Virus record (IMG/VR): IMGVR_UViG_2563366980_000013
Strand: one strand, 5' to 3'
DNA length: 34,548 bases
Origin: a virus
Lineage: Duplodnaviria; Heunggongvirae; Uroviricota; Caudoviricetes
Shown here: in pieces, positions 6,280-29,750 of the stretch
Numbering within the stretch: position 1 is the stretch's first letter
Layout of the letters: each line of letters begins with the position of its first letter
The notes under the pieces: generated by a model
Seen by the model: only the letters and a program-made list of their open reading frames with translations
What the model was told of the DNA's origin: nothing
Databases searched by the model: none
Translations under genes and position numbers: made by a program

Positions 6280-9164
6280 CAGCTGTACTCCTTACGTTGT
6301 TTCTGAGCCAGCAGACGCTCCAGCATTTTTTCCAGCTCATGCAGGCTCATATTCAGGGCACCAGCCAGCCCGGCAGGCGCTGCGGTTTCCTTACCATTGA
6401 GGAAAAACTGAGGATTAAAGCTGACCTGGATACCACCAGACGTTCCACCGCCGGTTGCAGCTGCACCACGGCCTGAATATCCGGCAGCCATGATTTCAGG
6501 CGAGGGGATACGGGGAACATCCGGTGTCATCTCATTTGCCAGACGTTGCCCTGGTAAAATCGATGCCCGGGTGGAGAGCGGGATAGCGGGCATGGAAGAC
6601 AAACTATTGATTACGGCTCCGATCGCATTTTTAGCAGACGACATAAACCCGTTGATATCGGGCAACGGCATACTGAAGCGAACACCTGAAGTGTTATCCC
6701 GTATTTCTGGCCCCTGAATGCTCACGGGCATTTTGGGGAGCAGTTCACTGGCCATTCGCTGCCCGGCCAGAGCTGCAAGCGGAGTGGTCCGCTGCAGGCC
6801 AATGGCGGCCCCCTGCGCGATATTGTCACCAAAGCCCATAAACACGCGGCTCGGCGAATGAATACCCAGCTTTTCACTGAACCAGCCACTGATGCTGTCA
6901 CCCATTCCGGTTACACTGGATTTGAGCGACTCCCATTTGTTTTTGATACCGTTAATCAGACCGTCGACAAGATGGCCACCGAAGTCGGTGAACTTTGCCG
7001 GCAGATCAACACCAAGATATTTCAGCGCAGCTGCAAAGGCTTTATAGAGCAGACCTGCCGGCGACCAGTTAATCAGCAGCTTACCAGTTCCCGCGATACC
7101 GCCGTTAAAGGCTTCCTGAATGTCAGCCCAGCACTGTTTAAACCAGCTACTGATGCTGTCACCCATTCCGGTTACACTGGATTTGAGCGACCCCCATTTG
7201 TTTTTGATACCGTTAATCAGACCGTCGATAAGATGGCCACCGAAGTCGGTGAACTTTGCCGGCAGAGCAACGCCGAAATATTTCAGCGCAGCAGCAAAGG
7301 CTTTATAGAGCAGGCCTGCCGGCGACCAGTTAATCAGCAACTTACCAATTCCCACAATGCCGCCGTTAAAGGCTTCCTGAATGTCTGCCCAGCGCTGTTT
7401 AAACCAGCCACTGACTGCCCACCAGTTGCGGTAGATAAGGTAAGCTGCTGCCGCGACAGCGGTGATAACGAGACCGATGGGATTCATCATCAGCGCACGT
7501 CCAATCCAGAGAACAGCACGTCCGGCGAGCATAATTCCGCGAACCAGCCAGCGGAGCTTACCGCCTTGCCCCAGTGCGAGCGACAGACGAAGCCAGTTGG
7601 CCCGAAGTAAAACAGCATTTTTCCAGACACTTACAAAGGGGGAAATAAGGAGATTCAGCCCCAGTTTGAGACCAACAGTCGCTATCTTAATCGCAAGGAG
7701 CGCACTGATGAGCTTAAAAGCCCCACTGACAAATTGCGGGTGAGTCGCTACCCAGTGTTTTGCCCCCTGAATGAGTGGAAGCAGTTCCTGAGTCAGAGAA
7801 ATAAAAGATGGAGCTAATTGATCGCCCAGCGTAATTGCCAGATCGCGACTGCTGACCATAAGTGTTTTAGTGGCTTCAAGGGGAGATTTCAGCCGCTGAT
7901 CATAAGCACTGGCAAGCAAATCGTTATCCGCAGCCCTGAGAGCACCGGCACGGATCTCTCGATATCTGTCCATGTTGGCCAGCATCGGGCGGATAAATGC
8001 CATGACCTGCATATCCGCGAACATATCGCCCAGACCAAAGTTTTTCGCCAGAGCCTGAAGTGCCTCATCTCTTGCCGTATCATTCTTTATTTTCATGGCG
8101 GATTTGAAGCCGGCCAGCGCTTCGGGGCTTTTGGCATTGAGGTAACGTTCTATAACACTCAACATCCCTTCAATCGGAGAGATCCCCGCAGCTTTATAAC
8201 TCGCAATAGATCCCTGCAAATCAATACCCAGATCAGCAAACTGTTTCTGAGTATCGCGGGCAAAAATTTTGGTAAGAAAGTTTTTAAAATTATTGGCTGC
8301 TTCGTCGGTGGAACCTGCACCGATTTTTGCTATCTGGAGACTGGCCCCGATTTCAGCAACAGCCTCTTTTCCACTGGCAATACCCGCCATCATTGGGGCC
8401 AGGGACTGCATCCACTTGACCTGATCCGGGATTTCAAATGCCCCCTGGTCACCGGCATAAGCCATAATATTCTGAACGGCACCAAAATCTCTGGCCGCAC
8501 CTTTCAGGGAGTTTTGCCAGACTGCGGCCACTTTTGCCCAGTCCTGAGCAGACGTGCGTGTTGCCGTTGCCGCGCGGGCAATATCCGGCATCAGAAAACC
8601 GATATCTGACACATTATCAATATTGTCGCTGATGAGTGAACCCACCGCCTCCTGCAGCTCATCCTGATACTGATTGTATTTAAGCGCCCAGCCTTTTATC
8701 TGTCCGGCAAGTGCATCCCGCGTTTTATTGTCATATTTTGCGGTGATCGACATATCAATCATTTTGTCCTGAAAAGACATGGACTGCTGAACGGCAGGGG
8801 AAACCGTATGATAAACAGTCTGTGCCATGCCATACGCTTCAATCCCCTGACCATACAGCGCCATGCGGTTAGCTTTCAGCGCATCACTGGTAGCGGATGC
8901 CGCTGACAGACGGCGCTGCTGGCGCTCAATTTGCTCCATGGTGCGGCTTACCCGCAGCAGCTCGCTGTTGAGATGCTGCATCCGGGAAGAACCCAGTTGA
9001 CCATAACGTTCTGTTGCACGGGTTAAAGCGTTCTGACGTTCCTGCAGGCGGCGTGAGGTATCGCTCAGGGAATCAAGCGCACGGCGGGTACCGCTCATTG
9101 CAGAACGGAATGTGCTGCCAATCATCCCGCCGATAACAACGCCGACTGAAAACTGTCCCGACAT
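6279..9164 (-). CDS. Tail tape measure protein
   Basis: 961-aa ORF between tail chaperone and baseplate genes; hydrophobic central segment and internal in-frame tandem repeats. Confidence 0.85.
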   Translation of the reverse strand: MSGQFSVGVVIGGMIGSTFRSAMSGTRRALDSLSDTSRRLQERQNALTRATERYGQLGSSRMQHLNSELLRVSRTMEQIERQQRRLSAASATSDALKANRMALYGQGIEAYGMAQTVYHTVSPAVQQSMSFQDKMIDMSITAKYDNKTRDALAGQIKGWALKYNQYQDELQEAVGSLISDNIDNVSDIGFLMPDIARAATATRTSAQDWAKVAAVWQNSLKGAARDFGAVQNIMAYAGDQGAFEIPDQVKWMQSLAPMMAGIASGKEAVAEIGASLQIAKIGAGSTDEAANNFKNFLTKIFARDTQKQFADLGIDLQGSIASYKAAGISPIEGMLSVIERYLNAKSPEALAGFKSAMKIKNDTARDEALQALAKNFGLGDMFADMQVMAFIRPMLANMDRYREIRAGALRAADNDLLASAYDQRLKSPLEATKTLMVSSRDLAITLGDQLAPSFISLTQELLPLIQGAKHWVATHPQFVSGAFKLISALLAIKIATVGLKLGLNLLISPFVSVWKNAVLLRANWLRLSLALGQGGKLRWLVRGIMLAGRAVLWIGRALMMNPIGLVITAVAAAAYLIYRNWWAVSGWFKQRWADIQEAFNGGIVGIGKLLINWSPAGLLYKAFAAALKYFGVALPAKFTDFGGHLIDGLINGIKNKWGSLKSSVTGMGDSISSWFKQCWADIQEAFNGGIAGTGKLLINWSPAGLLYKAFAAALKYLGVDLPAKFTDFGGHLVDGLINGIKNKWESLKSSVTGMGDSISGWFSEKLGIHSPSRVFMGFGDNIAQGAAIGLQRTTPLAALAGQRMASELLPKMPVSIQGPEIRDNTSGVRFSMPLPDINGFMSSAKNAIGAVINSLSSMPAIPLSTRASILPGQRLANEMTPDVPRIPSPEIMAAGYSGRGAAATGGGTSGGIQVSFNPQFFLNGKETAAPAGLAGALNMSLHELEKMLERLLAQKQRKEYS
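6880..7401. repeat. Two tandem ~261-bp (87-codon) in-frame repeats inside the tape measure gene
   Basis: Protein repeats WFKQ(R/C)WADIQEAFNGGI..KSSVTGMGDSIS(S/G) occur twice in succession; DNA copies roughly 90% identical by eye. Boundaries approximate. Confidence 0.8.
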
Positions 9165-22681: not shown

Positions 22682-23028
22682 AGTCCTGTTGCCACAGCCA
22701 GACAGACCGCTGCAACAATCAGTGCACGGCGGATTAACGCAGCAGAAAATACAAGGTGAAGGCCGGTCTGCACAGGGAAACGCCCTTCAGCCATCAGCCT
22801 GTCTTCATGTTTCAGGTACTGACCGGGACGGGCTTTGGGGAAGAGCGAACGGTCAAGCCAGTAACCCAGCACTGCTGCCAGCGTGATGAGTGCCAGCTTG
22901 TAGATCACAACAGGCAACTGCTGTGGCGAGACCAGAGCGATGGTGCCCAGCAACAGCACTGAGGTCAGCAGCCAGCCGCTGAGGCGAGGTTTTTTAACAG
23001 GGGGAATGAATTTTTTCAGGCTTTTCAT
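22678..23028 (-). CDS. Putative holin
   Basis: Small membrane protein with 2-3 predicted TM helices immediately upstream of the endolysin; start taken at the internal ATG (MKSLKKF..); the track ORF extends to 23061. Confidence 0.55.
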   Translation of the reverse strand: MKSLKKFIPPVKKPRLSGWLLTSVLLLGTIALVSPQQLPVVIYKLALITLAAVLGYWLDRSLFPKARPGQYLKHEDRLMAEGRFPVQTGLHLVFSAALIRRALIVAAVCLAVATGL

Positions 23029-23061
23029 GTGTGTCTCCTTGTTTGGTGGAGACAGCATCAC

Positions 23062-23158
23062 AAATGTGGCGGGATACGGATTTTAAAGCGCGTTATAAGT
23101 GTTCGCAGAGGGAAGCGACCAGAATGGTCGCACACAAAACATAGGGGAGGCAAGCACA
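23062..23158. promoter_or_regulatory. Divergent intergenic region upstream of the late operon, containing a 17-bp dyad (gcgacca gaa tggtcgc, approx. 23115-23131)
   Basis: Perfect 7-bp inverted repeat with 3-bp spacer located between the holin start and the divergent + strand gene; candidate late-activator or operator site. Confidence 0.35.
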
Positions 23159-23482
23159 ATGACTGAACCGAAACAGTCTGGTATTAAAAAAGGGTTCCTC
23201 TTTGGGAGCAGAATCGGAGAGCAGAATAAAACTTACACGCTAAGCTTGGATGCATGTTGTCCAACCGAAGCGATTATAGAGCTGAAAAACGTTCTGGTTG
23301 CACTTGAAGAGAGAAGAAGTCATTTCGCCAGCGGAGAAAACAACGTCATGCTAATTGGCGATGTGGCGGCGACATCACGATATAAAACCGCACCTAATCC
23401 TGCGATTCAGTTATCCTTCGACCAACGAATACTGGAAGCGGAATCAGCAGTTCCCAGAACGGTTCGTCCTCACCAGTCTTAA
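23159..23482 (+). CDS. Hypothetical protein (accessory)
   Basis: 107 aa from ATG with good RBS (AGGGGAGG, 8-nt spacing); no recognised family; 3' end overlaps the convergent gene 23394..23969. Confidence 0.45.
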   Translation: MTEPKQSGIKKGFLFGSRIGEQNKTYTLSLDACCPTEAIIELKNVLVALEERRSHFASGENNVMLIGDVAATSRYKTAPNPAIQLSFDQRILEAESAVPRTVRPHQS

Positions 23483-23969
23483 CTGGGGCTGCTTCACCCG
23501 ACCAGTAAAGCCAAGCACGGTGATACAGTTCCAGCACCGGGCAATCACTGTTCAATAACCTCATATCTCCGCGATGCACCTGCTCATTTGTGATGACTTC
23601 ATATATCGGTGCCGTTCTTATTTCGTCTTCGCCTCTCTCATCAGCCAGTAATTCCCTGAACTTCCTGACTTCACTCAGATGCTGACAGGCAAACAGTGAC
23701 TGATAGCGGGAAGGTTTATCAGGAAAATGGCTACGGCGAACTAACTCAAACACCAGACCGACCAGCAGACTTCTGCTGATTCCACTGTCATCTTCCATTT
23801 TAGGGCCGGGGTTATAGAGATAGTTATACCCGTGACTCGAAAGGCCATTGGGATACATCTGATGAAGAAAAGCGGCCAGTTCTGGCATTTCAGGCTCGTA
23901 TTTTCCGGTAATTACATGACAAGGCGAAGGCAGACGACTAGCGGAATCAAGTGTGTAATACGTTCCCAT
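23394..23969 (-). CDS. Hypothetical protein (accessory)
   Basis: 191-aa ORF; intermediate GC; no recognised family. Confidence 0.5.
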   Translation of the reverse strand: MGTYYTLDSASRLPSPCHVITGKYEPEMPELAAFLHQMYPNGLSSHGYNYLYNPGPKMEDDSGISRSLLVGLVFELVRRSHFPDKPSRYQSLFACQHLSEVRKFRELLADERGEDEIRTAPIYEVITNEQVHRGDMRLLNSDCPVLELYHRAWLYWSGEAAPVKTGEDEPFWELLIPLPVFVGRRITESQD

Positions 23970-24378
23970 TCAGAAAACAATCCTTATCGAACAAACACTG
24001 CACGTAGGTAATGCATCCAGTAAATCGCGTTAATAGAAATCATGTATCTCAAAACTTCACTCTGAACTCTGACAGTGAAAGAACGACCAGCCCGGTACCC
24101 GAACTCCAGGCTGGTCATCGCCCCACAGGAATGCACTGTGAGCCGACCGAGGTTCAGTCAGTCTCGCGAGACCAGACTAGCCTGCCATATTTTTTATAAT
24201 TATAAAAGGGTTACAGATTATGAAAATGCAGACATTCCCCATCGCTCCATGGATTGGTTGTAAACGCCGCCATGCCAGACATATTCTGGCCGATGTTTCC
24301 TAGCACGCACGAATATGAGGCAACTGACGAGAATAAATGATGCGTCAGAATGAACCGTCGACACCGTGCTTTCAGGTT

Positions 24379-24990
24379 TCAAAAATCTGGAGAAGGTATA
24401 TCTATCTGACCGACGTTTCGTAACCACATCTCTTGCTTTGTTTCTTTATTGGTTCGGGCGATATCATTAGCATTGTATCTGCATGTTTTAACCGCAACCT
24501 CACGAACTCGTGCTATAGGAGTATTTGTGTAGAATTTAAGATCTTCCTCTACCGCTCGTATGGCGATAAGCCCTCCACTCTGAAAACCGCTGGTTACTTT
24601 TAAAAGATCAACTCCTTGGTTATAAACGGCATTACATACGTTAGGGAACTCATCTTCTACAGTTTTGGGGATCATCAGCATATCAGGAAGACCCTGTAAC
24701 ACGTTATCTTCCTTTGGCCTCCATGCCCTTCCCAAAAAAGCTGTTATAGGTTGTGGTGTAGAAAGAAATGCCAATTCTATATAAAACAAACCACTGTAGT
24801 GATCGCGTAACGAATAGACTAGTAAATGATCTTTTCCAGTTTTACTTGCATTGCTAAGTTTTATATCAAATGGTTTTTTCTGGTACTTAAGCAATCCATC
24901 AACTCCCGCATAATAATGCTTTGAAACAGCAACAGAAAGTTGATGTACTTGGTTCGGATAATCTGTTCTATATCGTTTAATTAGCCCCAT
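24379..24990 (-). CDS. Hypothetical soluble protein, second gene of the repressor-linked cargo pair
   Basis: 203-aa ORF in clearly AT-rich DNA relative to the phage backbone; 20 nt downstream of the membrane-protein gene on the same strand. Confidence 0.6.
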   Translation of the reverse strand: MGLIKRYRTDYPNQVHQLSVAVSKHYYAGVDGLLKYQKKPFDIKLSNASKTGKDHLLVYSLRDHYSGLFYIELAFLSTPQPITAFLGRAWRPKEDNVLQGLPDMLMIPKTVEDEFPNVCNAVYNQGVDLLKVTSGFQSGGLIAIRAVEEDLKFYTNTPIARVREVAVKTCRYNANDIARTNKETKQEMWLRNVGQIDIPSPDF

Positions 24991-25010
24991 AATAGCCTCG
25001 CAGTTATTTT

Positions 25011-25997
25011 CTATTTCAAAATATAACGATATTTACTATCTGGAGTGTTTTGTTGGTCAAGTAATAGAGCTCTACATGGGGCGGTCAAAACACGGGCATA
25101 ACGACCATCGGGGTTTATGTTGATGTAACAAGTTTTCCCTTTAACACCATAAGATTCAGGTATTATTGCCTGTGTAGACACCGTGAATTTAAGGGTATGC
25201 CAGCCCGATTTTTGCTTGTAGCTTGAAACCGAATGGAAATCATCTGAGTACTTATTTAACCCTGGAAACATGCTGCGTAATGCTGGGATGGAATCTTCTA
25301 TTATTTTGTCGTTGGTTTTAATGTTAAAAACGCTGGTTTCAGTAGATGCTACTGCTTTAGCATTTCCCCATTTACCAGCGAACACAATCATTCCCACGAA
25401 AAATATTGCGACAAGAACTAACGCTCCCCCCAACACTACTACATGAGGCTTCCGGCTTCTGGTTGGTACAGTCGCGACTGATTTTGCCCCGCTGTCCGAT
25501 GGAGGTGATAGAGTTTTACTCTCATCACGAATATTCAGCAGATCATCAAAATAACCAAACACAGCCTGCAACTGCTCTTTGTCCAGGCCTTTAAGATGGG
25601 TTGTACCGAAATGCTTCAGACAGTATCTGTCACGGTCAAGACGATACCTAGGGTCAGTAAGCACCATTATTTTGCTGACCAGAAGATTACAGTCCTTCAT
25701 ATTCTGGATCTGTTGTGCATATCTCTGGAGGATCTCAACCGCACCATGATAATCAGCCGCAGTCATTTCATTAACTGTTTTGGTATTAAGTTTCGTGTGG
25801 ATCGTCATCCATAGTTCGCGCTTACTTTCCCCCAGATCAACCAATTCATCCATCAATCTGTGTAAATCGCGTTTTTGCAGCAACGAAATTGGTTGCTGGG
25901 CAGAGGGAAGTATGTCAGCAGAATAGTTATGAATGGTAACATCACCGCTGACAACGTTACCCACATCTCCGTTAACTGTTTGCTTCTCTTTACTCAT
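25011..25997 (-). CDS. Hypothetical single-pass membrane protein, first gene of the repressor-linked cargo pair
   Basis: 328 aa; N-terminal ~185-aa soluble domain, one TM helix (HVVVLGGALVLVAIFFVGMIVFAG), C-terminal ~115-aa domain; start overlaps the repressor stop (ATGA); AT-rich. Confidence 0.6.
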   Translation of the reverse strand: MSKEKQTVNGDVGNVVSGDVTIHNYSADILPSAQQPISLLQKRDLHRLMDELVDLGESKRELWMTIHTKLNTKTVNEMTAADYHGAVEILQRYAQQIQNMKDCNLLVSKIMVLTDPRYRLDRDRYCLKHFGTTHLKGLDKEQLQAVFGYFDDLLNIRDESKTLSPPSDSGAKSVATVPTRSRKPHVVVLGGALVLVAIFFVGMIVFAGKWGNAKAVASTETSVFNIKTNDKIIEDSIPALRSMFPGLNKYSDDFHSVSSYKQKSGWHTLKFTVSTQAIIPESYGVKGKTCYININPDGRYARVLTAPCRALLLDQQNTPDSKYRYILK

Positions 25998-26455
25998 TTT
26001 CTCTTTGTATTTTTGTTCATTATTCCACCTGTTCCTATGGTTACGTTACCTTTGATAACATTCCCCAGAACATCTCCATGAATAACCTGTTCCGCCCGTT
26101 CTCTGGAGGAGCCAGTCGTCAATGCCGACAAAACTGAACCTTTGACTTGTAACGGTGCTTGCCGGTAGTGCTGAAGTAACTCCATTTCATCACGTGATAA
26201 AGTTATACCTGATGATTCCCCAGTAAGAATGAACTGTACGTTGGCCCCAATTCTTGCAAAGGCTGCAAGTAACTCACCTCCGGGAACTGCAACCCCTCGT
26301 TCATATTTCCCCCACATTTCTCTTGAAACGCCACAAAGGGCTGCTACTTCAGCCTGCTTGAGTGATAACCGCGAACGCTCAGCTTTGAACCGCGACGCGC
26401 AAAGAGAATCAAAATTCACATAAACCTCATTGACAATGAGAACAATAGTTCTCAT
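25994..26455 (-). CDS. HTH (XRE/Cro-C1-type) transcriptional regulator, putative prophage repressor
   Basis: HTH region ..LSLKQAEVAALCGVSREMWGKYERG..; divergent from the Ner-like early gene across a 50-bp intergenic region; true start may be an internal GTG/ATG. Confidence 0.65.
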   Translation of the reverse strand: MRTIVLIVNEVYVNFDSLCASRFKAERSRLSLKQAEVAALCGVSREMWGKYERGVAVPGGELLAAFARIGANVQFILTGESSGITLSRDEMELLQHYRQAPLQVKGSVLSALTTGSSRERAEQVIHGDVLGNVIKGNVTIGTGGIMNKNTKRK

Positions 26456-26505
26456 AATCTATCACATATAAAACAAACATCATTGCATCAACAAAGGAGA
26501 CAACA
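26456..26505. promoter_or_regulatory. Divergent repressor/early promoter-operator region
   Basis: 50-bp AT-rich spacer between the divergently transcribed repressor and Ner-like genes, with AAAGGAG RBS before the + strand ATG. Confidence 0.45.
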
Positions 26506-26694
26506 ATGACTTCCGAACAAGTTAAAACTCTCTTCCGTCAGCGTGGTATCACGTTTACCCGCTGGGCCGAAGAACACGGCTACAGCCGCAATGAGGTCTA
26601 TCGTGTTCTCAATGGACAGACCAAAGCTCGTTACGGCAAAGCCCATGAAATTGCCGTAAAGCTGGGATTAAAACCCACGTCAAATGCGGCATAA
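26506..26694 (+). CDS. Ner/Cro-like small DNA-binding protein
   Basis: 62 aa; HTH-like segment TRWAEEHGYSRNEVYRVLNG; first gene of the early operon, divergent from the repressor. Confidence 0.55.
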   Translation: MTSEQVKTLFRQRGITFTRWAEEHGYSRNEVYRVLNGQTKARYGKAHEIAVKLGLKPTSNAA

Positions 26695-26746
26695 ATTTTC
26701 CATATATGCAACAGGTTATCACATATTGCAAAAATGGAAATGTGAC

Positions 26747-27055
26747 ATGAGTAAAGTAAATATCTCCAGTTCCGGGACCCGCATCCTACGTGTACTCAAA
26801 GCTCTACGCGGTCACTCTCTGAACGGTGTTTCTAACGGTGAACTGGCATCAGCCCTAGATGAGTCCCCGGCGAACATCAATCGAGCACTCAATACCCTTA
26901 TCGAAGAGGGACTAGCCCTGAAACTGGAAAACGGGCGTTTCGCACCAGGCATCCAGTTGCTGCAGATCGCCATGGCCCACAGTAACGAGATGGCACGTGC
27001 ACAGGATCGCATTAACGAAATCAACCAACGTGTTATTTCAGGTAGTCGTTTGTAA
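26747..27055 (+). CDS. Winged-helix DNA-binding protein (early regulator)
   Basis: 102 aa from the internal ATG; wHTH-like segment ILRVLKALRGHSLNGVSNGELASALDESPANINRALNTLIEEGL. Confidence 0.45.
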   Translation: MSKVNISSSGTRILRVLKALRGHSLNGVSNGELASALDESPANINRALNTLIEEGLALKLENGRFAPGIQLLQIAMAHSNEMARAQDRINEINQRVISGSRL

Positions 27056-27065
27056 GGAGTAATCA

Positions 27066-27977
27066 ATGGGACGCACCAAATCACCGGTTAGCACTGAACT
27101 GAATGTCGAGGTACCGCTGTCGGATGATCTCAATGTCAGTCTAAACGCCATGACACAGCATCGCATGGAAATCATGCAACAGTTCGGCGATGGTCTGCCC
27201 TATGAGCGCGATCGTGTTGTCCATGAGGCACGCTTTTATATGGCACAGAGCGCTGAGGCCATGCTGGAGGCAGGTAAGCGGCTGATAATCCTTAAGGAAA
27301 ATGAACCACACGGGGAGTTTATAAAGATTCTTGAAAGTGAGTTGGGGCTGGCATACCGGACATCTGTGAGAATGATGCAAGCATCGACAAAATACTTATC
27401 CCCGACGCTGAAACCAAATGTGCCAACGTTGGCACATTTGGGAAAAGCCAAACTTTTCGAATTAATGACAGAAGACGACGAAGAGCTTGCCGAACTGGCC
27501 GACGGCGGCACAGTTGCCGGCATGACGCTTGACGATGTTGATCGCATGTCAGTACGTGAATTGCGTCAGGCCCTGCGTGAAGCGCGCGAAACCAACGCAG
27601 CACAACAGCGTGTTCTCGCCGATAAAAATGAAAAAATAGACTCACTCTCCACCAGACTGGAGAAGAAATCCCGTATTCAGCCACCTGAGCCTGATGAAGA
27701 GGTGAAGAAACTGCGGGCGGAAGTGACCGCGTTAGCGGTTGAGGCGGAATCTGCCATCGCCGTTCGACTGTCCAGCGCTTTTGAGACACTGTGCGCATAT
27801 TGTACTGAAAACATGATTGATACCCCCAGAGACTTCATGGCAGGCCTGGTCTGTCAACTGGAAAGCACAGCGCGTAGCCTGCGCTCCACATTTGACCTGC
27901 CGGACGAGCCAACAGGCGATGTCGCGCCTTCATGGCTGACTGAGCCGACGCCACAGATTAACGGGCTGGAGGCATAA
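27066..27977 (+). CDS. Conserved early protein of unknown function
   Basis: 303-aa ORF with RBS, immediately upstream of the transposase. Confidence 0.5.
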   Translation: MGRTKSPVSTELNVEVPLSDDLNVSLNAMTQHRMEIMQQFGDGLPYERDRVVHEARFYMAQSAEAMLEAGKRLIILKENEPHGEFIKILESELGLAYRTSVRMMQASTKYLSPTLKPNVPTLAHLGKAKLFELMTEDDEELAELADGGTVAGMTLDDVDRMSVRELRQALREARETNAAQQRVLADKNEKIDSLSTRLEKKSRIQPPEPDEEVKKLRAEVTALAVEAESAIAVRLSSAFETLCAYCTENMIDTPRDFMAGLVCQLESTARSLRSTFDLPDEPTGDVAPSWLTEPTPQINGLEA

Positions 27978-27980
27978 CCA

Positions 27981-29750
27981 ATGAATGCTGCCCTGACTGA
28001 ACGACTGGTTTATGTCGCCCGCGCGGCACGTGACGCGGGGCATGGTAAACGCGGTGCAATATACGACGCTGCCTGTGCTGAACTTGGCATGTCCCGCGCC
28101 ACTCTGCTGCGCAGGCTGAAGGAGGTATCTGTGACTGATAAACGCAAAAAACGCGCCGATGCCGGGCGCAGCGCCCTGACCCGCGACGAAGCCGCGCTGA
28201 TATCTGCCACACTGCGTGAGGCCACCCGCAAGAACGGTAAGCGTCTCTATTCCATCGCAGATGCAGTGGAAACCCTGCGGGCTAACGGCTTTATCTCCGC
28301 AGGCAGAACAGATGAAACCACCGGTGAGTTTTTCCCGTTGTCCGAAGATGCCATCAGTCGTGCCTTGCGTAACTATGGCCTGCACCCAGAACAACTGGAT
28401 GCCCCTGCGCCGCATACCGAAGTGGCCAGTCTGCATCCCAATCACGTCTGGCAGATTGATGCCTCGCTCTGCACGCTTTACTACCTGAGCAATGGACACA
28501 AAGGGCTGCAGGTGATGGACAGCGCGAAGTTCTACAAGAACAAACCCGCTAACCTTGCCCGTATCGCCAGTGACCGCGTGTGGAGTTACGAGATTACCGA
28601 CCATGCCAGCGGCTGGATTTACGTTGAGTATGTGACGGGTGCGGAATCCGGTGAGAACCTGTGTTCTGTGCTTATCAACGCCATGCAGGAGCGTGGCGGC
28701 GCAGACGTGCTGCACGGCGTGCCGAAAATACTCTATCTCGACCCCGGCTCGGCAAACACCGCGGGTATGACGAAAAACATGTGCCGCTCACTGGGCATCG
28801 ACCTGATAGCGCACAAGCCGCATAACGCCCGCGCCACCGGACAGGTGGAAAAGGCGCGTGACATTATCGAACGCAAGCTGGAGCCGGGTCTGAAATTCCG
28901 GCCGGTTCACAGTCTGGAAGAACTCAACGCGCTGGCCGCGAAATGGCGTAGCCACTTTAACGCAACAGCTGTTCACAGCCGCCACGGTAAAACCCGCACG
29001 GATATCTGGCTGAAGATTACTGCTGAGCAGCTGAAAAAAGCGCCTTCCGTTGAGGTATGCCGTGAACTGGCTGTGGCGACACCAGAACTCCGCAAAGTCA
29101 CGCCAAAACTTCGTGTCTCGTTCCGGGGCACTGAATTTGACGTATCAACGGTACCGGGCGTACTGGTTGGTGAAAAACTGATGATTACCCGTAACCCATG
29201 GCGCAGCGATGTGGCACAGGTGGTTCTGACCGGTGAGGACGGCCACGAGACGTTCTTCCTGGTCGAAGAGGTCAGAAAGAACGAGTTTGGCTTTGCTGAA
29301 GGCGCGGCGGTATTTGGCGAAAGTTACAAAGCCCTGCCGGAAACACCGGCACAGACGGCGGCAAAAGAAACCGAAGCGCTGGTCACCGGTACAGACAACG
29401 CCGCAGATGCAGCTGCCGCACGCAAGGCGAAGGCGCTGCCGTTCGGCGGGCGGCTTGACCCGTATAAACATATTGATGACGCCACACTTCCGGCCTGTAT
29501 ACCGAAGCGCGGTCAGGTCTCTGATGTACGCAGACCGCGCACTGAACAACGTCCCATGACTCATGTGGAGGCCGCGAAAGCCCTGCGCGATAAGTTCAGC
29601 GCCGACGGCCTTACCTGGACGCCGGAACATTACCGCCAGTTAACGGCACAGTACCCGGACGGCGTACCGGAAGCCGCACTGGATGAAGTAATGGCCACGC
29701 TGACCACGCCGGCCCGCAGCAGCGTTATCAGCATTGTTAACGGCAACTGA
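27981..29750 (+). CDS. DDE transposase (retroviral-integrase-type catalytic core; Mu A functional analogue)
   Basis: 589 aa; candidate catalytic residues in HVWQIDAS, LYLDPGSANT and HKPHNARATGQVEKA; followed by an AAA+ partner gene. Confidence 0.8.
   Translation: MNAALTERLVYVARAARDAGHGKRGAIYDAACAELGMSRATLLRRLKEVSVTDKRKKRADAGRSALTRDEAALISATLREATRKNGKRLYSIADAVETLRANGFISAGRTDETTGEFFPLSEDAISRALRNYGLHPEQLDAPAPHTEVASLHPNHVWQIDASLCTLYYLSNGHKGLQVMDSAKFYKNKPANLARIASDRVWSYEITDHASGWIYVEYVTGAESGENLCSVLINAMQERGGADVLHGVPKILYLDPGSANTAGMTKNMCRSLGIDLIAHKPHNARATGQVEKARDIIERKLEPGLKFRPVHSLEELNALAAKWRSHFNATAVHSRHGKTRTDIWLKITAEQLKKAPSVEVCRELAVATPELRKVTPKLRVSFRGTEFDVSTVPGVLVGEKLMITRNPWRSDVAQVVLTGEDGHETFFLVEEVRKNEFGFAEGAAVFGESYKALPETPAQTAAKETEALVTGTDNAADAAAARKAKALPFGGRLDPYKHIDDATLPACIPKRGQVSDVRRPRTEQRPMTHVEAAKALRDKFSADGLTWTPEHYRQLTAQYPDGVPEAALDEVMATLTTPARSSVISIVNGN

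Follow-up and report, generated by a model that had tools for sequence, protein, structure and literature searches.

An AT-rich block behind a BcepMu-like prophage repressor: a repressor–Flk_N gene pair and a separate relative of the transposase core

In an E. coli prophage of the BcepMu-like transposable type, the two genes that follow the repressor appear to belong to two independent things, a repressor-linked immunity module and a separately acquired gene, which together form an AT-rich block on one strand. Judged from sequence, the repressor and the gene directly behind it (gene A) are a conserved two-gene immunity module, in which A is the constant partner of the repressor and not cargo. 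The next gene (gene B) is a separately acquired moron, and encodes a stand-alone homologue of the phage's own DDE transposase core in which the catalytic residues are replaced. We tentatively favour, at a little under even confidence, a joint reading in which the repressor and A are paired through their tails and B is an independent, non-catalytic mimic of the transposase. The window, the whole stretch of DNA analysed here, is 34,548 nt of a caudoviricete (IMG/VR record IMGVR_UViG_2563366980_000013), and its relevant features are collected in Table 1.

Table 1 Features of the AT-rich block and of the prophage transposase, with positions in the window.
Feature	Position	Strand	Basis or remark
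Gene B, 203 aa	24379..24990	-	ORF; stand-alone, catalytically dead homologue of the Mu/BcepMu-type DDE transposase core
B positions matching the D,D,E triad	S19 24934-24936; P108 24667-24669; G139 24574-24576	-	
A-B spacer, 20 nt	24991..25010	-	GAGG Shine-Dalgarno 8 nt before the B start; sequence read directly
Gene A, 328 aa	25011..25997	-	ORF; single-pass membrane protein, constant partner of the repressor
Predicted periplasmic alpha/beta domain of A, aa 221-328	25014..25337	-	pLDDT about 90; lipoprotein homology
Transmembrane segment of A, aa 186-208	25374..25442	-	Kyte-Doolittle 2.9; RSRKPH just before
Flk_N domain of A, aa 28-152, helical, predicted cytoplasmic	25542..25916	-	NCBIfam, Pfam on homologues, BLASTP
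N-terminal motif of A, aa 7-24, TVNGDVGNVVSGDVTIHN	25926..25979	-	Matches the repressor tail; class I
XRE-family HTH repressor, 153 aa as called	25994..26455	-	Pfam HTH_31/HTH_3 and NCBIfam RstR/DicA-type matches
HTH of the repressor	26252-26392		
C-tail motif of the repressor, aa 122-141, EQVIHGDVLGNVIKGNVTIG	26033..26092	-	Followed by the basic end NKNTKRK
Sigma-70-like early promoter	26430..26458	+	TTGACA-17-CATAAT, 11/12; consensus match only
DDE transposase of the prophage, 589 aa	27981..29750	+	Pfam rve
Transposase core homologous to B, aa 147-361	28419-29063	+	hhalign, BLASTP

Gene order, base composition and distribution

The ORFs of B, A and the repressor were called on the same strand, with A and B lying 3' of the repressor as first described. 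The repressor stop and the start of A overlap in an ATGA, read directly from the sequence, and A and B are spaced closely. A scan of the minus strand from the repressor to the end of B found no terminator-like site, the first one being 274 nt past B. The absence of such a site and the tight junctions fit a single repressor-A-B transcript, which we infer. The repressor is divergent from an operon of a ner-like gene and the transposase, and probably starts at V13 (26419), since its homologues begin VNFDSLCASR. The putative early promoter aims at the ner-like gene and lies partly within the repressor ORF as annotated, at its 5' end. Rfam searches of 22900-27100 gave chance-level matches only.

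The block had also been described as AT-rich and horizontally acquired, and base composition and phage homology both agree with this. GC content is 38.9% in B, 42.6% in A and 44.8% in the repressor, compared with 54.5% for the window and 58.1% for the transposase. Among 69 consecutive 500-nt bins of the window (mean 0.545, sd 0.051), the four with the lowest GC are contiguous (24501-26500), and the lowest of all, 0.39, is 3 sd under the mean. Homology to phage KP12 ends at about 24297 and homology to phage PhiKM begins at about 26454; therefore 24379-26455 is a mosaic block relative to related phages. That both are real genes is indicated by PGAP, which annotates the two in 27 E. coli chromosomes at least 99.8% identical over gene B, and by intact homologues at identities as low as 36-45%.

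The first-pass annotation treated A and B as a two-gene module comparable to phage exclusion genes. Lambda rexAB and P22 sieA/sieB are exclusion genes expressed with the repressor. In phage Fc02, exclusion genes (olg1) are co-transcribed with the repressor of a transposable phage (PMC9936078). A and B share with all of these the position downstream of the repressor and, presumably, expression in the lysogen; unlike them, they have no homology to such systems and form no obligate pair. Neither protein matched a PADLOC model (PADLOC-DB v2, 0 families at E<=1 for each), and the likeness to rexAB and the sie genes was not borne out.

A single membrane-anchored exclusion or abortive-infection system built from both proteins, in the manner of lambda rexAB, would suit their adjacency, their 20-nt spacing and their place on the strand of the repressor, and the pair recurs in a Serratia prophage at 57% identity. 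However, the distribution of the two genes already contradicts such a system. Among complete E. coli genomes A is present in 127 and B in only 27 of those, which leaves A without B in 100/127. The viral contigs with A carry B in only 2/15 and lack it in 13/15, and prophages of Serratia marcescens and Yersinia have the repressor and A without B. Conversely, B-family genes have no A-like neighbour in any of the other phyla examined. We consider a joint two-gene system very unlikely. The survey of homologues that had been proposed as a check thus went against the co-occurrence of A and B, but did find defence genes beside relatives of B.

The repressor and gene A

A was first described as a single-pass membrane protein and B as soluble, and both descriptions agree with hydropathy. 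The transmembrane segment is the one strongly hydrophobic stretch of A, and B has no strong hydrophobic segment on the Kyte-Doolittle scale. The segment in A aligns with the signal peptide of a homologous lipoprotein. We predict a cytoplasmic N-terminus, one membrane helix and a periplasmic C-terminus, because the C-terminal domain is homologous to a lipoprotein and because of the orientation of Flk. The C-terminal domain has two conserved cysteines and is similar to the L027 lipoprotein (25% over 134 aa, BLASTP E 6e-15). In related phages this domain is a separate lipoprotein (KP12_283; L027). In KP12 its gene directly follows a different repressor, and in L027/L028 a short Flk_N protein precedes it. 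Searches with the domain against PDB and viral folds gave no match, and Foldseek with gene A against viral structures returned nothing at E<=0.001.

The N-terminal half of A runs counter to the statement that neither protein resembles a known family. A matches NCBIfam Flk (PRK10715) over residues 19-147 (E 1.6e-11, 44 bits) and aligns with E. coli K-12 Flk at 25% identity over 133 aa (BLASTP E 1e-5). Pfam PF27202 (Flk_N) is a precomputed annotation on homologues of A, and the model of A has helices at 39-154. Flk, a flagellar biosynthesis regulator of E. coli and Salmonella and the founding Flk_N member, was reported by Aldridge et al. (2006) to be a cytoplasm-facing, tail-anchored protein. 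A resembles it in having an Flk_N domain followed by a membrane anchor. Unlike Flk, whose tail anchor is the last element, A continues past the helix with a predicted periplasmic domain of 110 aa, and Flk has neither the matched N-terminal motif described below nor an adjacent repressor.

The Flk_N homology and the same tail-anchored cytoplasmic orientation would be expected if A acted as chromosomal Flk does on flagellar type III export, bringing about lysogenic conversion of motility or FlgM secretion. However, identity is only 25%, and the score of 44 bits lies below the NCBIfam equivalog cut-off of 353, which denies A equivalence to full-length Flk. The motif is absent from Flk, and its matching in the pairs, like the strict linkage to the repressor, would be left unexplained. 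We regard a Flk-like action of A as highly improbable. Sensitive profile searches and structure prediction, suggested at the outset for both proteins, placed Flk_N on A and a transposase core on B, but comparison of folds yielded no clue to what either domain of A does.

The linkage of A to the repressor was constant. In every examined prophage carrying either gene, the repressor is directly followed by an Flk_N gene. These prophages are transposable or integrase-type and belong to Enterobacterales and Pseudomonas, with Flk_N directly after a repressor homologue in E. coli integrase-type, Dickeya BcepMu-like and Pseudomonas Mu-like prophages. The overlap of repressor stop and A start is found in the window, in 15 viral contigs and at four other loci, and the overlapping pairs are those of motif class I (see below). 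Viral sequences were scanned with single Flk_N proteins, the diverse Flk_N set having no stretch conserved enough for an alignment-based scan.

The two partners also share a Gly/Asn/Val motif of about 18 residues. It occupies the roughly 20 residues that directly precede the basic end of the repressor, and the first 20 or so residues of the Flk_N partner. Only these two occurrences are present in a six-frame translation of the window. We distinguished at least four motif classes (I-IV), and both partners of each pair carry the same class. The mean local alignment score is 53.7 within pairs vs 27.9 between pairs, and 2/720 permutations reach the observed sum, a fraction that is not a true probability since the pairs are phylogenetically related. 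Pseudomonas Flk_N proteins with 83-93% identity from residue 33 on have class II or class IV N-termini, and each such N-terminus is of the same class as the tail of its repressor. One of the four tail classes was found in 48/107 repressor-homologue clusters. Recent duplication is ruled out as the source of the motif, since at the DNA level the two regions that encode it share only 58% identity. A constant partner with a co-varying motif is not what the earlier term "cargo" implies, and the term does not apply to A.

We propose that the tails of the repressor and A pair directly, by a homotypic contact of beta-strand or cross-beta type. The membrane protein A would hold or switch the repressor, as an RseA-type anti-sigma factor does its sigma factor, and this contact would couple lysogenic control with envelope state. 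RseA is the membrane-anchored anti-sigma factor of sigma-E. Like RseA, A has a predicted arrangement of N-terminal cytoplasmic domain, one helix and C-terminal periplasmic domain, and appears to share an operon with a transcription factor; unlike RseA, to which it has no sequence or fold similarity, its proposed target is a repressor, contacted via short matching tails. Speaking against tail pairing, the motif region of A has a pLDDT <50 and is thus unfolded in the monomer model. Matching motifs would also be expected from a shared degron or a shared third partner.

Alternatively, A may be a classical envelope superinfection-exclusion protein of the Cor, Llp or SieA type, acting via its periplasmic domain, and the shared motif would then be only co-regulatory, for example a common degron or membrane-targeting signal. 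The occurrence of the same domain as a free lipoprotein after the KP12 repressor and in L027/L028, the position of gene A in the presumed lysogeny operon and the precedent of phage Fc02 all argue for such a role. However, a periplasmic domain is missing altogether from the majority of Flk_N partners (193-215 aa), yet their motif is still matched, and a generic degron poorly explains how the motif class is swapped jointly in both partners while the Flk_N body stays nearly the same. We consider exclusion by A unlikely, although a reading of some weight.

The proposed tail pairing resembles amyloid-signalling pairs, of which Bab/Agp (BASS11) of E. coli and fungal HET-S/NWD2 are examples (bioRxiv 10.1101/2024.11.07.622273). 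As in both of these, the genes are adjacent, and a short Gly/Asn-rich motif lies at the C-terminus of one protein and the N-terminus of the next. Further points in common are a motif that is more alike within than between pairs and a membrane-targeted partner. The partners themselves differ: an XRE HTH repressor and an Flk_N membrane protein here, an NLR/STAND or TPR sensor and a Bell/HeLo membrane-disrupting pore-former in Bab/Agp and HET-S/NWD2. Literature searches returned nothing on three RefSeq protein accessions or the AGRDY-type motif, and nothing on dead DDE transposases in defence or Flk in prophages.

Gene B and the transposase core

The relation of B to the transposase was found by fold search and profile-profile comparison, and is the second departure from the statement that neither protein resembles a known family. 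The predicted fold of B is confident and, in the model, corresponds to the RNase H-like alpha/beta fold of the DDE transposase and retroviral integrase core (rve clan). In hhalign the B family profile aligned with the transposase of the window (96%) and with seven BcepMu-type transposases (98.9%, E 1.5e-17; B 7-205 on transposase 147-361). BLASTP gave E 5e-11 and 23% identity between B and the prophage transposase, and the B profile matched the true transposase P0201 at 3e-20. In a tblastn search of 50,697 GenBank phage records, B matched only transposases of Bcepmuvirus and B3-like transposable phages. Searches of B against Pfam, NCBIfam, PHROGs and PADLOC gave no match, and its profile against PDB sequences gave a chance match only (E 0.6).

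Comparison of B with the transposase reveals the loss of the catalytic triad. The transposase triad is intact (D160, D254 and E290; D and E positions via alignment to PFV integrase) and aligns to S19, P108 and G139 of B. Across the B family the D, D and E are replaced by Ser or an aliphatic residue, Pro and Gly. In 196/197 aligned members the triad positions are never acidic; the exception is the true transposase P0201, which alone has Asp at the first two positions. The non-catalytic motifs PNxVxQ, KxKP, DHxSG..Y.E, GxP and K...W are kept. B covers only the part that corresponds to residues 147-361 of the transposase, and is without the N-terminal DNA-binding domains that bind the ends and the C-terminal domain for the ATPase partner, which drive transpososome assembly. 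Family-specific invariants that are absent from transposases (H16, H25, Q37, R62 and TSGFQ) lie near the former active site by sequence position and could carry a new activity.

The B family is large, with 527 clusters at E<=1e-3 (50% identity) across six or more phyla. Its members are ORFs of about 200 aa with 8 invariant and about 29 nearly invariant positions. The lost triad would be expected of a decaying, functionless remnant of a transposase gene, but these ORFs are intact from 36% to 100% identity across phyla, and such conservation, together with the confident fold, contradicts B as a pseudogene. We find the remnant explanation barely credible.

Outside prophages, most B-family members adjoin defence or toxin-antitoxin genes on mobile elements. 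Their neighbours include restriction-modification, AbiEii, HipA, ParE, Mrr/CoiA/methylase, type IIG restriction-modification and RhuM genes, and with the precedent of Fc02 these make the conflict-related role suggested in the first-pass annotation plausible. For most B-family genes outside Enterobacterales, no Mu-like transposase was found within 8-10 kb. One B-family gene lies beside TerL in a phage whose terminase is of an ordinary rather than a Mu type, and some relatives are fused to TPR repeats (TPR/ST7-like regions). No conserved partner gene of B was found. We also considered the variable slot as a hotspot for known defence systems, but its neighbours in related prophages gave no PADLOC match and were only Dam methylase, small membrane or P-loop proteins. 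A 193-aa alternative cargo gene after A, present in 100 E. coli genomes, was considered as another dead core and proved unrelated.

We propose that B, produced in the lysogen, serves as a non-catalytic mimic of the transposase core. By taking up protein or DNA sites needed by the real core, it would block integration and transpositional replication of incoming transposable phages; it may also damp the resident transposable phage. Several of the observations above speak against B as a transposition inhibitor: the missing Mu-like transposase near most B-family genes outside Enterobacterales, the member in the phage with the ordinary terminase, the missing domains for transpososome assembly, the family-specific invariants and the TPR fusions. 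Tn5/IS50 Inh and the P-element KP repressor are transposition inhibitors derived from the transposase itself. Like these, B is transposase-related, has no DNA-binding N-terminus and is non-catalytic; it could act on the active enzyme by poisoning or competition. Unlike these, B is a separate, horizontally acquired gene on the opposite strand, 3 kb from a transposase to which it is only 23% identical, and not a product of the transposase gene made through another start or a frameshift. It retains nothing but the catalytic core, in which each of the three DDE residues is replaced, and belongs to a family dispersed across many phyla, remote from any cognate transposase. Mu repressor c and MuA transposase share a DNA-binding domain, a further case in which a lysogeny protein of a transposable phage has homology to a portion of that phage's transposase. 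There it is the N-terminal DNA-binding domain that is shared, and the protein is a transcriptional repressor; in the present prophage the catalytic core is shared, and repression falls to an unrelated XRE protein.

The main rival to mimicry is that B is a neofunctionalised transposase-core scaffold, a nucleic-acid-binding sensor or effector or an anti-defence protein unrelated to transposition. Relatives whose neighbours are defence and toxin-antitoxin genes and not transposable phages, the member beside TerL in the non-Mu phage, the TPR/ST7-like fusions, which are typical of sensor modules, and the invariant His, Gln and Arg missing from transposases are all consistent with this. However, the motifs that B keeps are exactly the non-catalytic ones common to Mu-type transposases, no known defence model matches it and it has no conserved partner gene. 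We judge neofunctionalisation somewhat doubtful, but a serious contender.

A bolder conjecture takes both parts of the block further. The tails of the repressor and the Flk_N protein would form a homotypic cross-beta switch with prion-like templating, so that a change in the membrane protein is passed to the repressor, or the reverse, with control of prophage induction or the triggering of abortive infection as the outcome. Independently, the dead-core family would be a widespread single-gene immunity against DDE-transposing elements. We hold this conjecture to be quite unlikely.

Implications for temperate phages

Genes behind a repressor are not automatically one cargo system, as the block described here illustrates. 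The B family is a large, uncharacterised family in defence neighbourhoods that is absent from Pfam, NCBIfam, PHROGs and PADLOC. If B blocks transposition, it would represent a new class of immunity, directed against the chemistry by which Mu-like phages, and perhaps transposons, replicate, and a natural source of transposase or integrase inhibitors.

If the tails of the repressor and the Flk_N protein interact, the four motif classes would amount to a specificity code that is swappable and directly testable. To our knowledge, Flk, the founding member of Flk_N, has had no known mechanism for decades, and such an interaction would provide a first molecular handle on this domain. It would also mean that many temperate phages have an overlooked connection to the membrane that feeds into, or issues from, the lysis-lysogeny decision. 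A cross-beta switch, if real, would occur in many temperate phages of Enterobacterales and Pseudomonas, and would be the first known instance of amyloid-type signalling coupled to a lysogenic switch.

The repressor, A and B block of the prophage

The window matches, at 100% identity, a prophage in the chromosome of E. coli SF-088 and of ~26 other complete genomes. We treated the element as a BcepMu-like transposable prophage, since its relative PhiKM belongs to Bcepmuvirus. The minus strand carries the structural (myovirus) and lysis genes, which encode among others a Mu-type portal, a Mu gp27-like protein, an SLT endolysin and a Holin_2-3 holin, followed on the same strand by the HTH repressor. 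The divergent plus-strand early operon comprises ner-like, IclR-type HTH, DUF3102, rve transposase, ExeA-type ATPase and Gam genes. Homology to KP12 stops at ~24297 and homology to PhiKM starts at ~26454. Therefore, the repressor, gene A and gene B together form a mosaic block.

Coordinates of features in the window and in compared loci
Feature	Location	Coordinates	Strand	Remarks
ORF, 127 aa	window	23099-23482	+	opposes 3' end of DUF2441 gene
DUF2441 gene	window	23394-23969	-	between B and holin
Weak terminator-like hairpin	window	24105-24089		in spacer after B
Promoter-like site	window	24226-24199		in spacer after B
Gene B	window	24379-24990	-	203 aa
Gene A	window	25011-25997	-	328 aa
Flk_N domain	A	residues 28-152		NCBIfam Flk, E 1.6e-11; precomputed Pfam PF27202; E. 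coli K-12 Flk, 25% identity, E 1e-5
Membrane helix	A	residues 186-208
Alpha/beta domain	A	residues 221-328		confidently modelled; two conserved cysteines
Repressor gene	window	25994-26455	-	XRE-family HTH, 153 aa as called
Early promoter	window	26430-26458		sigma-70-like, 11/12 match
Transposase gene	window	27981-29750	+	589 aa
B-family genes, Leptospira weilii/L. noguchii plasmids	NZ_CP040842.1; NZ_CP091965.1	66439-67038; 15935-16540		33-35% identical; annotated hypothetical
RhuM-family gene, then B homologue	L009; L016; L021	4979-6684; 12-820; 3870-8632		Desulfobacterota
Split B homologues	L018; L021	8001-8677; 8001-8632		Desulfobacter-type MAGs
Slot after A, related prophages	L029; L026; L004; L024	2315-3410; 6070-6819; 6391-6831; 6058-6828
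Flk_N-plus-helix and lipoprotein genes	L027; L028	5001-6160; 1669-2828		197 aa, then 177 aa
Lipoprotein alone	KP12 (L002)	8033-8566
Tandem HTH genes and Flk_N gene	L051	3470-5050		E. coli integrase-type prophage
flk, E. coli K-12	L050	5951-6946

The first-pass annotation had described A and B as an AT-rich two-gene module expressed with the repressor, in a location comparable to that of rexAB. Its sequence observations were confirmed, and its interpretation was supported in part. All three ORFs were found where it had placed them, with the repressor stop and A start overlapping in ATGA, a single hydrophobic helix in A and none in B. The AT-richness was confirmed (GC 44.8% for the repressor, 42.6% for A and 38.9% for B vs 54.5% for the window), and the four lowest-GC 500-nt bins of the window form one contiguous run, 24501-26500. 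A 20-nt gap containing a GAGG ribosome-binding site separates A from B, and a scan from the repressor to the end of B found no terminator-like sites. The called repressor start, ATG 26455, overlaps the early promoter, and repressor homologues such as that of Dickeya L052 begin VNFDSLCASR. Thus, the true start is probably the GTG for V13 at ~26419, giving 141 aa.

The block is not a rexAB-like pair, and A and B are not a two-gene module. A occurs in 127 complete E. coli genomes and B in 27, the remaining 100 carrying an unrelated 193-aa membrane protein where B would be. Only 2/15 IMG/VR contigs with A have B, both identical to the window, and the repressor and A occur without B in Serratia marcescens and Yersinia prophages. 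One Serratia prophage has the repressor-A-B order. The position behind A is a moron slot of variable content, which can hold B, a Dam methylase or small membrane proteins. In the 100 E. coli genomes the 193-aa protein is of glycine-zipper type and is accompanied by a 158-aa P-loop protein named 'ABC transporter ATPase'. Yersinia has a 249-aa membrane protein, Serratia a 146-aa protein behind B, and several prophages the Dam methylase. PADLOC returned zero matches among the slot proteins of related prophages.

Beyond B lies a 409-nt spacer and the DUF2441 gene, which is part of the backbone shared with KP12 (90% identity). Rfam gave no match between B and the holin (window 23394-24378). The 127-aa ORF is absent from the PGAP annotation, has zero family matches in Pfam, PADLOC, PHROGs and NCBIfam, and is probably not a gene.

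Gene B and its family

B itself has zero matches in Pfam, NCBIfam, PHROGs, PADLOC and PDB sequences. Its alignment (49 sequences) is integrase-core-like, showing a DHxSG hairpin and a GxP strand, with a helix following a fifth strand, and its AlphaFold model is confident (pLDDT 91.5). The B family profile matched the window's own transposase (96% probability) and an alignment of seven BcepMu-type transposases (98.9%, E 1.5e-17, B 7-205 to transposase 147-361), and plain BLASTP linked B to the transposase (E 5e-11, 23% identity, 194 residues). A tblastn search with B of all 50,697 GenBank phage records matched only Bcepmuvirus and B3-like transposable-phage transposases. Aligning the transposase to PFV integrase, together with its D(35)E spacing, placed the catalytic triad at D160, D254 and E290; B has S19, P108 and G139 at these positions. 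In the 197 family members aligned, the residue at position 19 is aliphatic or else Ser, Thr or Asn, 154 have Pro at position 108, and Gly, Ala or Ser occupies position 139. The sole Asp-Asp member, P0201, is a true Mu-type transposase of 568 aa. The non-catalytic motifs shared with the transposases (PNxVxQ, KxKP, DHxSG..Y.E, GxP, K...W) are retained. Judged from its sequence, B copies the transposase core but is catalytically dead. As a DDE-core homologue that lacks the defining catalytic triad, it is not a transposase.

When 1.84 billion representatives were scanned in full with the HMM, 527 B-family clusters scored E<=1e-3, of which 98 reached E<=1e-30. The best 150 matches include 98 stand-alone proteins of 150-260 aa and 20 of >400 aa, the dead core being N-terminal in most of the latter. 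Several long members among those scanned bear TPR/ST7-like repeats; in P0083, P0126, P0137 and P0152-P0157 (480-1180 aa) these are C-terminal to the dead core, and one of these proteins also has GLUG repeats. Hosts include Gammaproteobacteria, Desulfobacterota, Acidobacteriota, Chlamydiota, Firmicutes and WOR-3, with plasmid-borne members in Leptospira, Pseudomonas and Cupriavidus. The matches on Pseudomonas megaplasmids and Cupriavidus plasmids are shorter and annotated as hypothetical.

Outside Enterobacterales, B-family neighbours include ParE (L003, L008), HipA on a conjugative element (L010), Mrr with a CoiA-type nuclease and a methylase (L011), AbiEii (L014) and type IIG restriction-modification enzymes (L018, with the same gene arrangement in L019). 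RhuM-family genes adjoin the family in L009, L016 and L021, with a stop/start overlap in the first two. No BcepMu-type transposase lies nearby at the loci examined outside Enterobacterales, and one member adjoins an ordinary terminase on a non-Mu phage contig. Thus, B-family genes are small and autonomous, and belong to mobile elements and defence neighbourhoods. RhuM may be a lineage-specific partner in Desulfobacterota; the L021 RhuM gene is broken by an IS21-like element. The split homologues in L018 and L021 (ORFs of ~101 and 113-128 aa) reflect either a frameshift pseudogene or a long-read assembly error.

We propose that B would act as a non-catalytic mimic of the transposase core, disturbing transposition-dependent integration and replication, an outcome that would be analogous to that of Tn5 Inh. 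Nearly equal weight is given to a neofunctionalised B with a role unrelated to transposition, because most relatives lie away from any Mu-like element and the family-specific invariant residues could mark a new activity.

Gene A and its link to the repressor

The first-pass annotation had assigned neither protein to a family, which fails for B, as a homologue of DDE transposase cores, and for A, which bears a Flk_N domain. A shares this domain with Flk but is not a Flk equivalog (44 bits vs 353). By eye, K-12 Flk appears to contain a second, degenerate Flk_N-like unit at ~residues 160-290, ahead of the C-terminal anchor; the N-terminus of Flk is rich in Pro, Gly and Gln and lacks the phage motif described below.

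The last domain of A is homologous to a lipoprotein (E 6e-15, 25% over 134 residues), whose signal peptide aligns with the A helix. In L027 and L028 a Flk_N-plus-helix protein is followed by a separate lipoprotein homologous to the A periplasmic domain, and in KP12 the lipoprotein stands alone behind an unrelated coiled-coil repressor. This split arrangement is a fusion/fission link between the halves of A. From the homology, the helix alignment and the split arrangement, A is predicted to have a cytoplasmic N-terminus and a periplasmic C-terminus. In the window, in 15/15 viral contigs and at four other loci, the stop codon of the repressor overlaps the start of the Flk_N gene; at a fifth locus, Serratia L004, the genes are 16 nt apart. 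A belongs to the repressor.

Matched motifs of the repressor and Flk_N proteins

A shared motif ends the repressor (...EQVIHGDVLGNVIKGNVTIGTGGIMNKNTKRK) and begins A (MSKEKQTVNGDVGNVVSGDVTIHNY), and its pattern occurs only at these two sites in the six-frame translation of the window. Recent duplication as its source was ruled out, as the two DNA regions are 58% identical. One of four related tail types ends 48/107 repressor-homologue clusters found in a search with the repressor. Genomic context was fetched for one example of each of three tail types, from an E. coli integrase-type, a Dickeya BcepMu-like and a Pseudomonas putida Mu-like prophage, and in 3/3 a Flk_N protein of 193-215 aa directly follows the repressor. 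The motif type at each Flk_N N-terminus is that of its own repressor.

Motif classes of repressor tails and Flk_N N-termini
Class	Repressor tail	Flk_N N-terminus
I	GDV(L)GNV..GNVTI	GDVGNVVSGDVTI
II, E. coli	GKGHRIAGRDYNE	SDNRVAGRDYHE
II, P. putida	GSGNRTAGRDYKE	GARNRTAGRDYYE
III	FHGNVSGQFAGNQIVN	FNGTASGQFSARDIIN
IV	FKEVGQYIEGSVNQ	FQSVGQYTEGHINN

The strongest case for motif matching is a class II/IV swap in Pseudomonas, where class IV N-termini are found on Flk_N proteins whose sequences from residue 33 on match the class II protein at 83-93% identity, and their repressors are likewise class IV. Local alignment scores in a 6x6 matrix averaged 53.7 within pairs vs 27.9 between, and the observed within-pair sum was reached by 2/720 permutations, an indication rather than a probability since the pairs are related by descent. 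The modular co-swap speaks against a model in which both motifs simply occupy a Flk_N-body pocket, and favours direct contact between the repressor tail and the Flk_N N-terminus. In L051, two tandem repressor-like HTH genes have class II tails (GGNNRIAGRDYNENNKG and GKGHRIAGRDYNETEGK) and precede a single Flk_N protein with the same motif, which may be one membrane partner for two repressors.

We propose that the repressor tail and A N-terminus would pair homotypically, by simple strand pairing or cross-beta templating, and that membrane protein A would thereby hold or switch the repressor, with induction, immunity stabilisation or cell death as the output. The predicted topology of A matches that of membrane-anchored anti-sigma factors. 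The gene arrangement follows the logic of amyloid-signalling pairs, in which one gene product ends and the next begins with the same motif, as exemplified by Bab/Agp from an E. coli prophage defence island (bioRxiv 10.1101/2024.11.07.622273). The searchable literature yielded no account of the repressor/Flk_N module, the matched motif or the dead-core family; conceptual precedents exist in transposase-derived inhibitors, amyloid-signalling pairs and anti-sigma factors. What is said here on structure and evolution is well supported, and the proposed mechanisms are hypotheses open to direct testing. The single two-gene system of no known family proposed initially falls away, while a conflict function linked to lysogeny is plausible.
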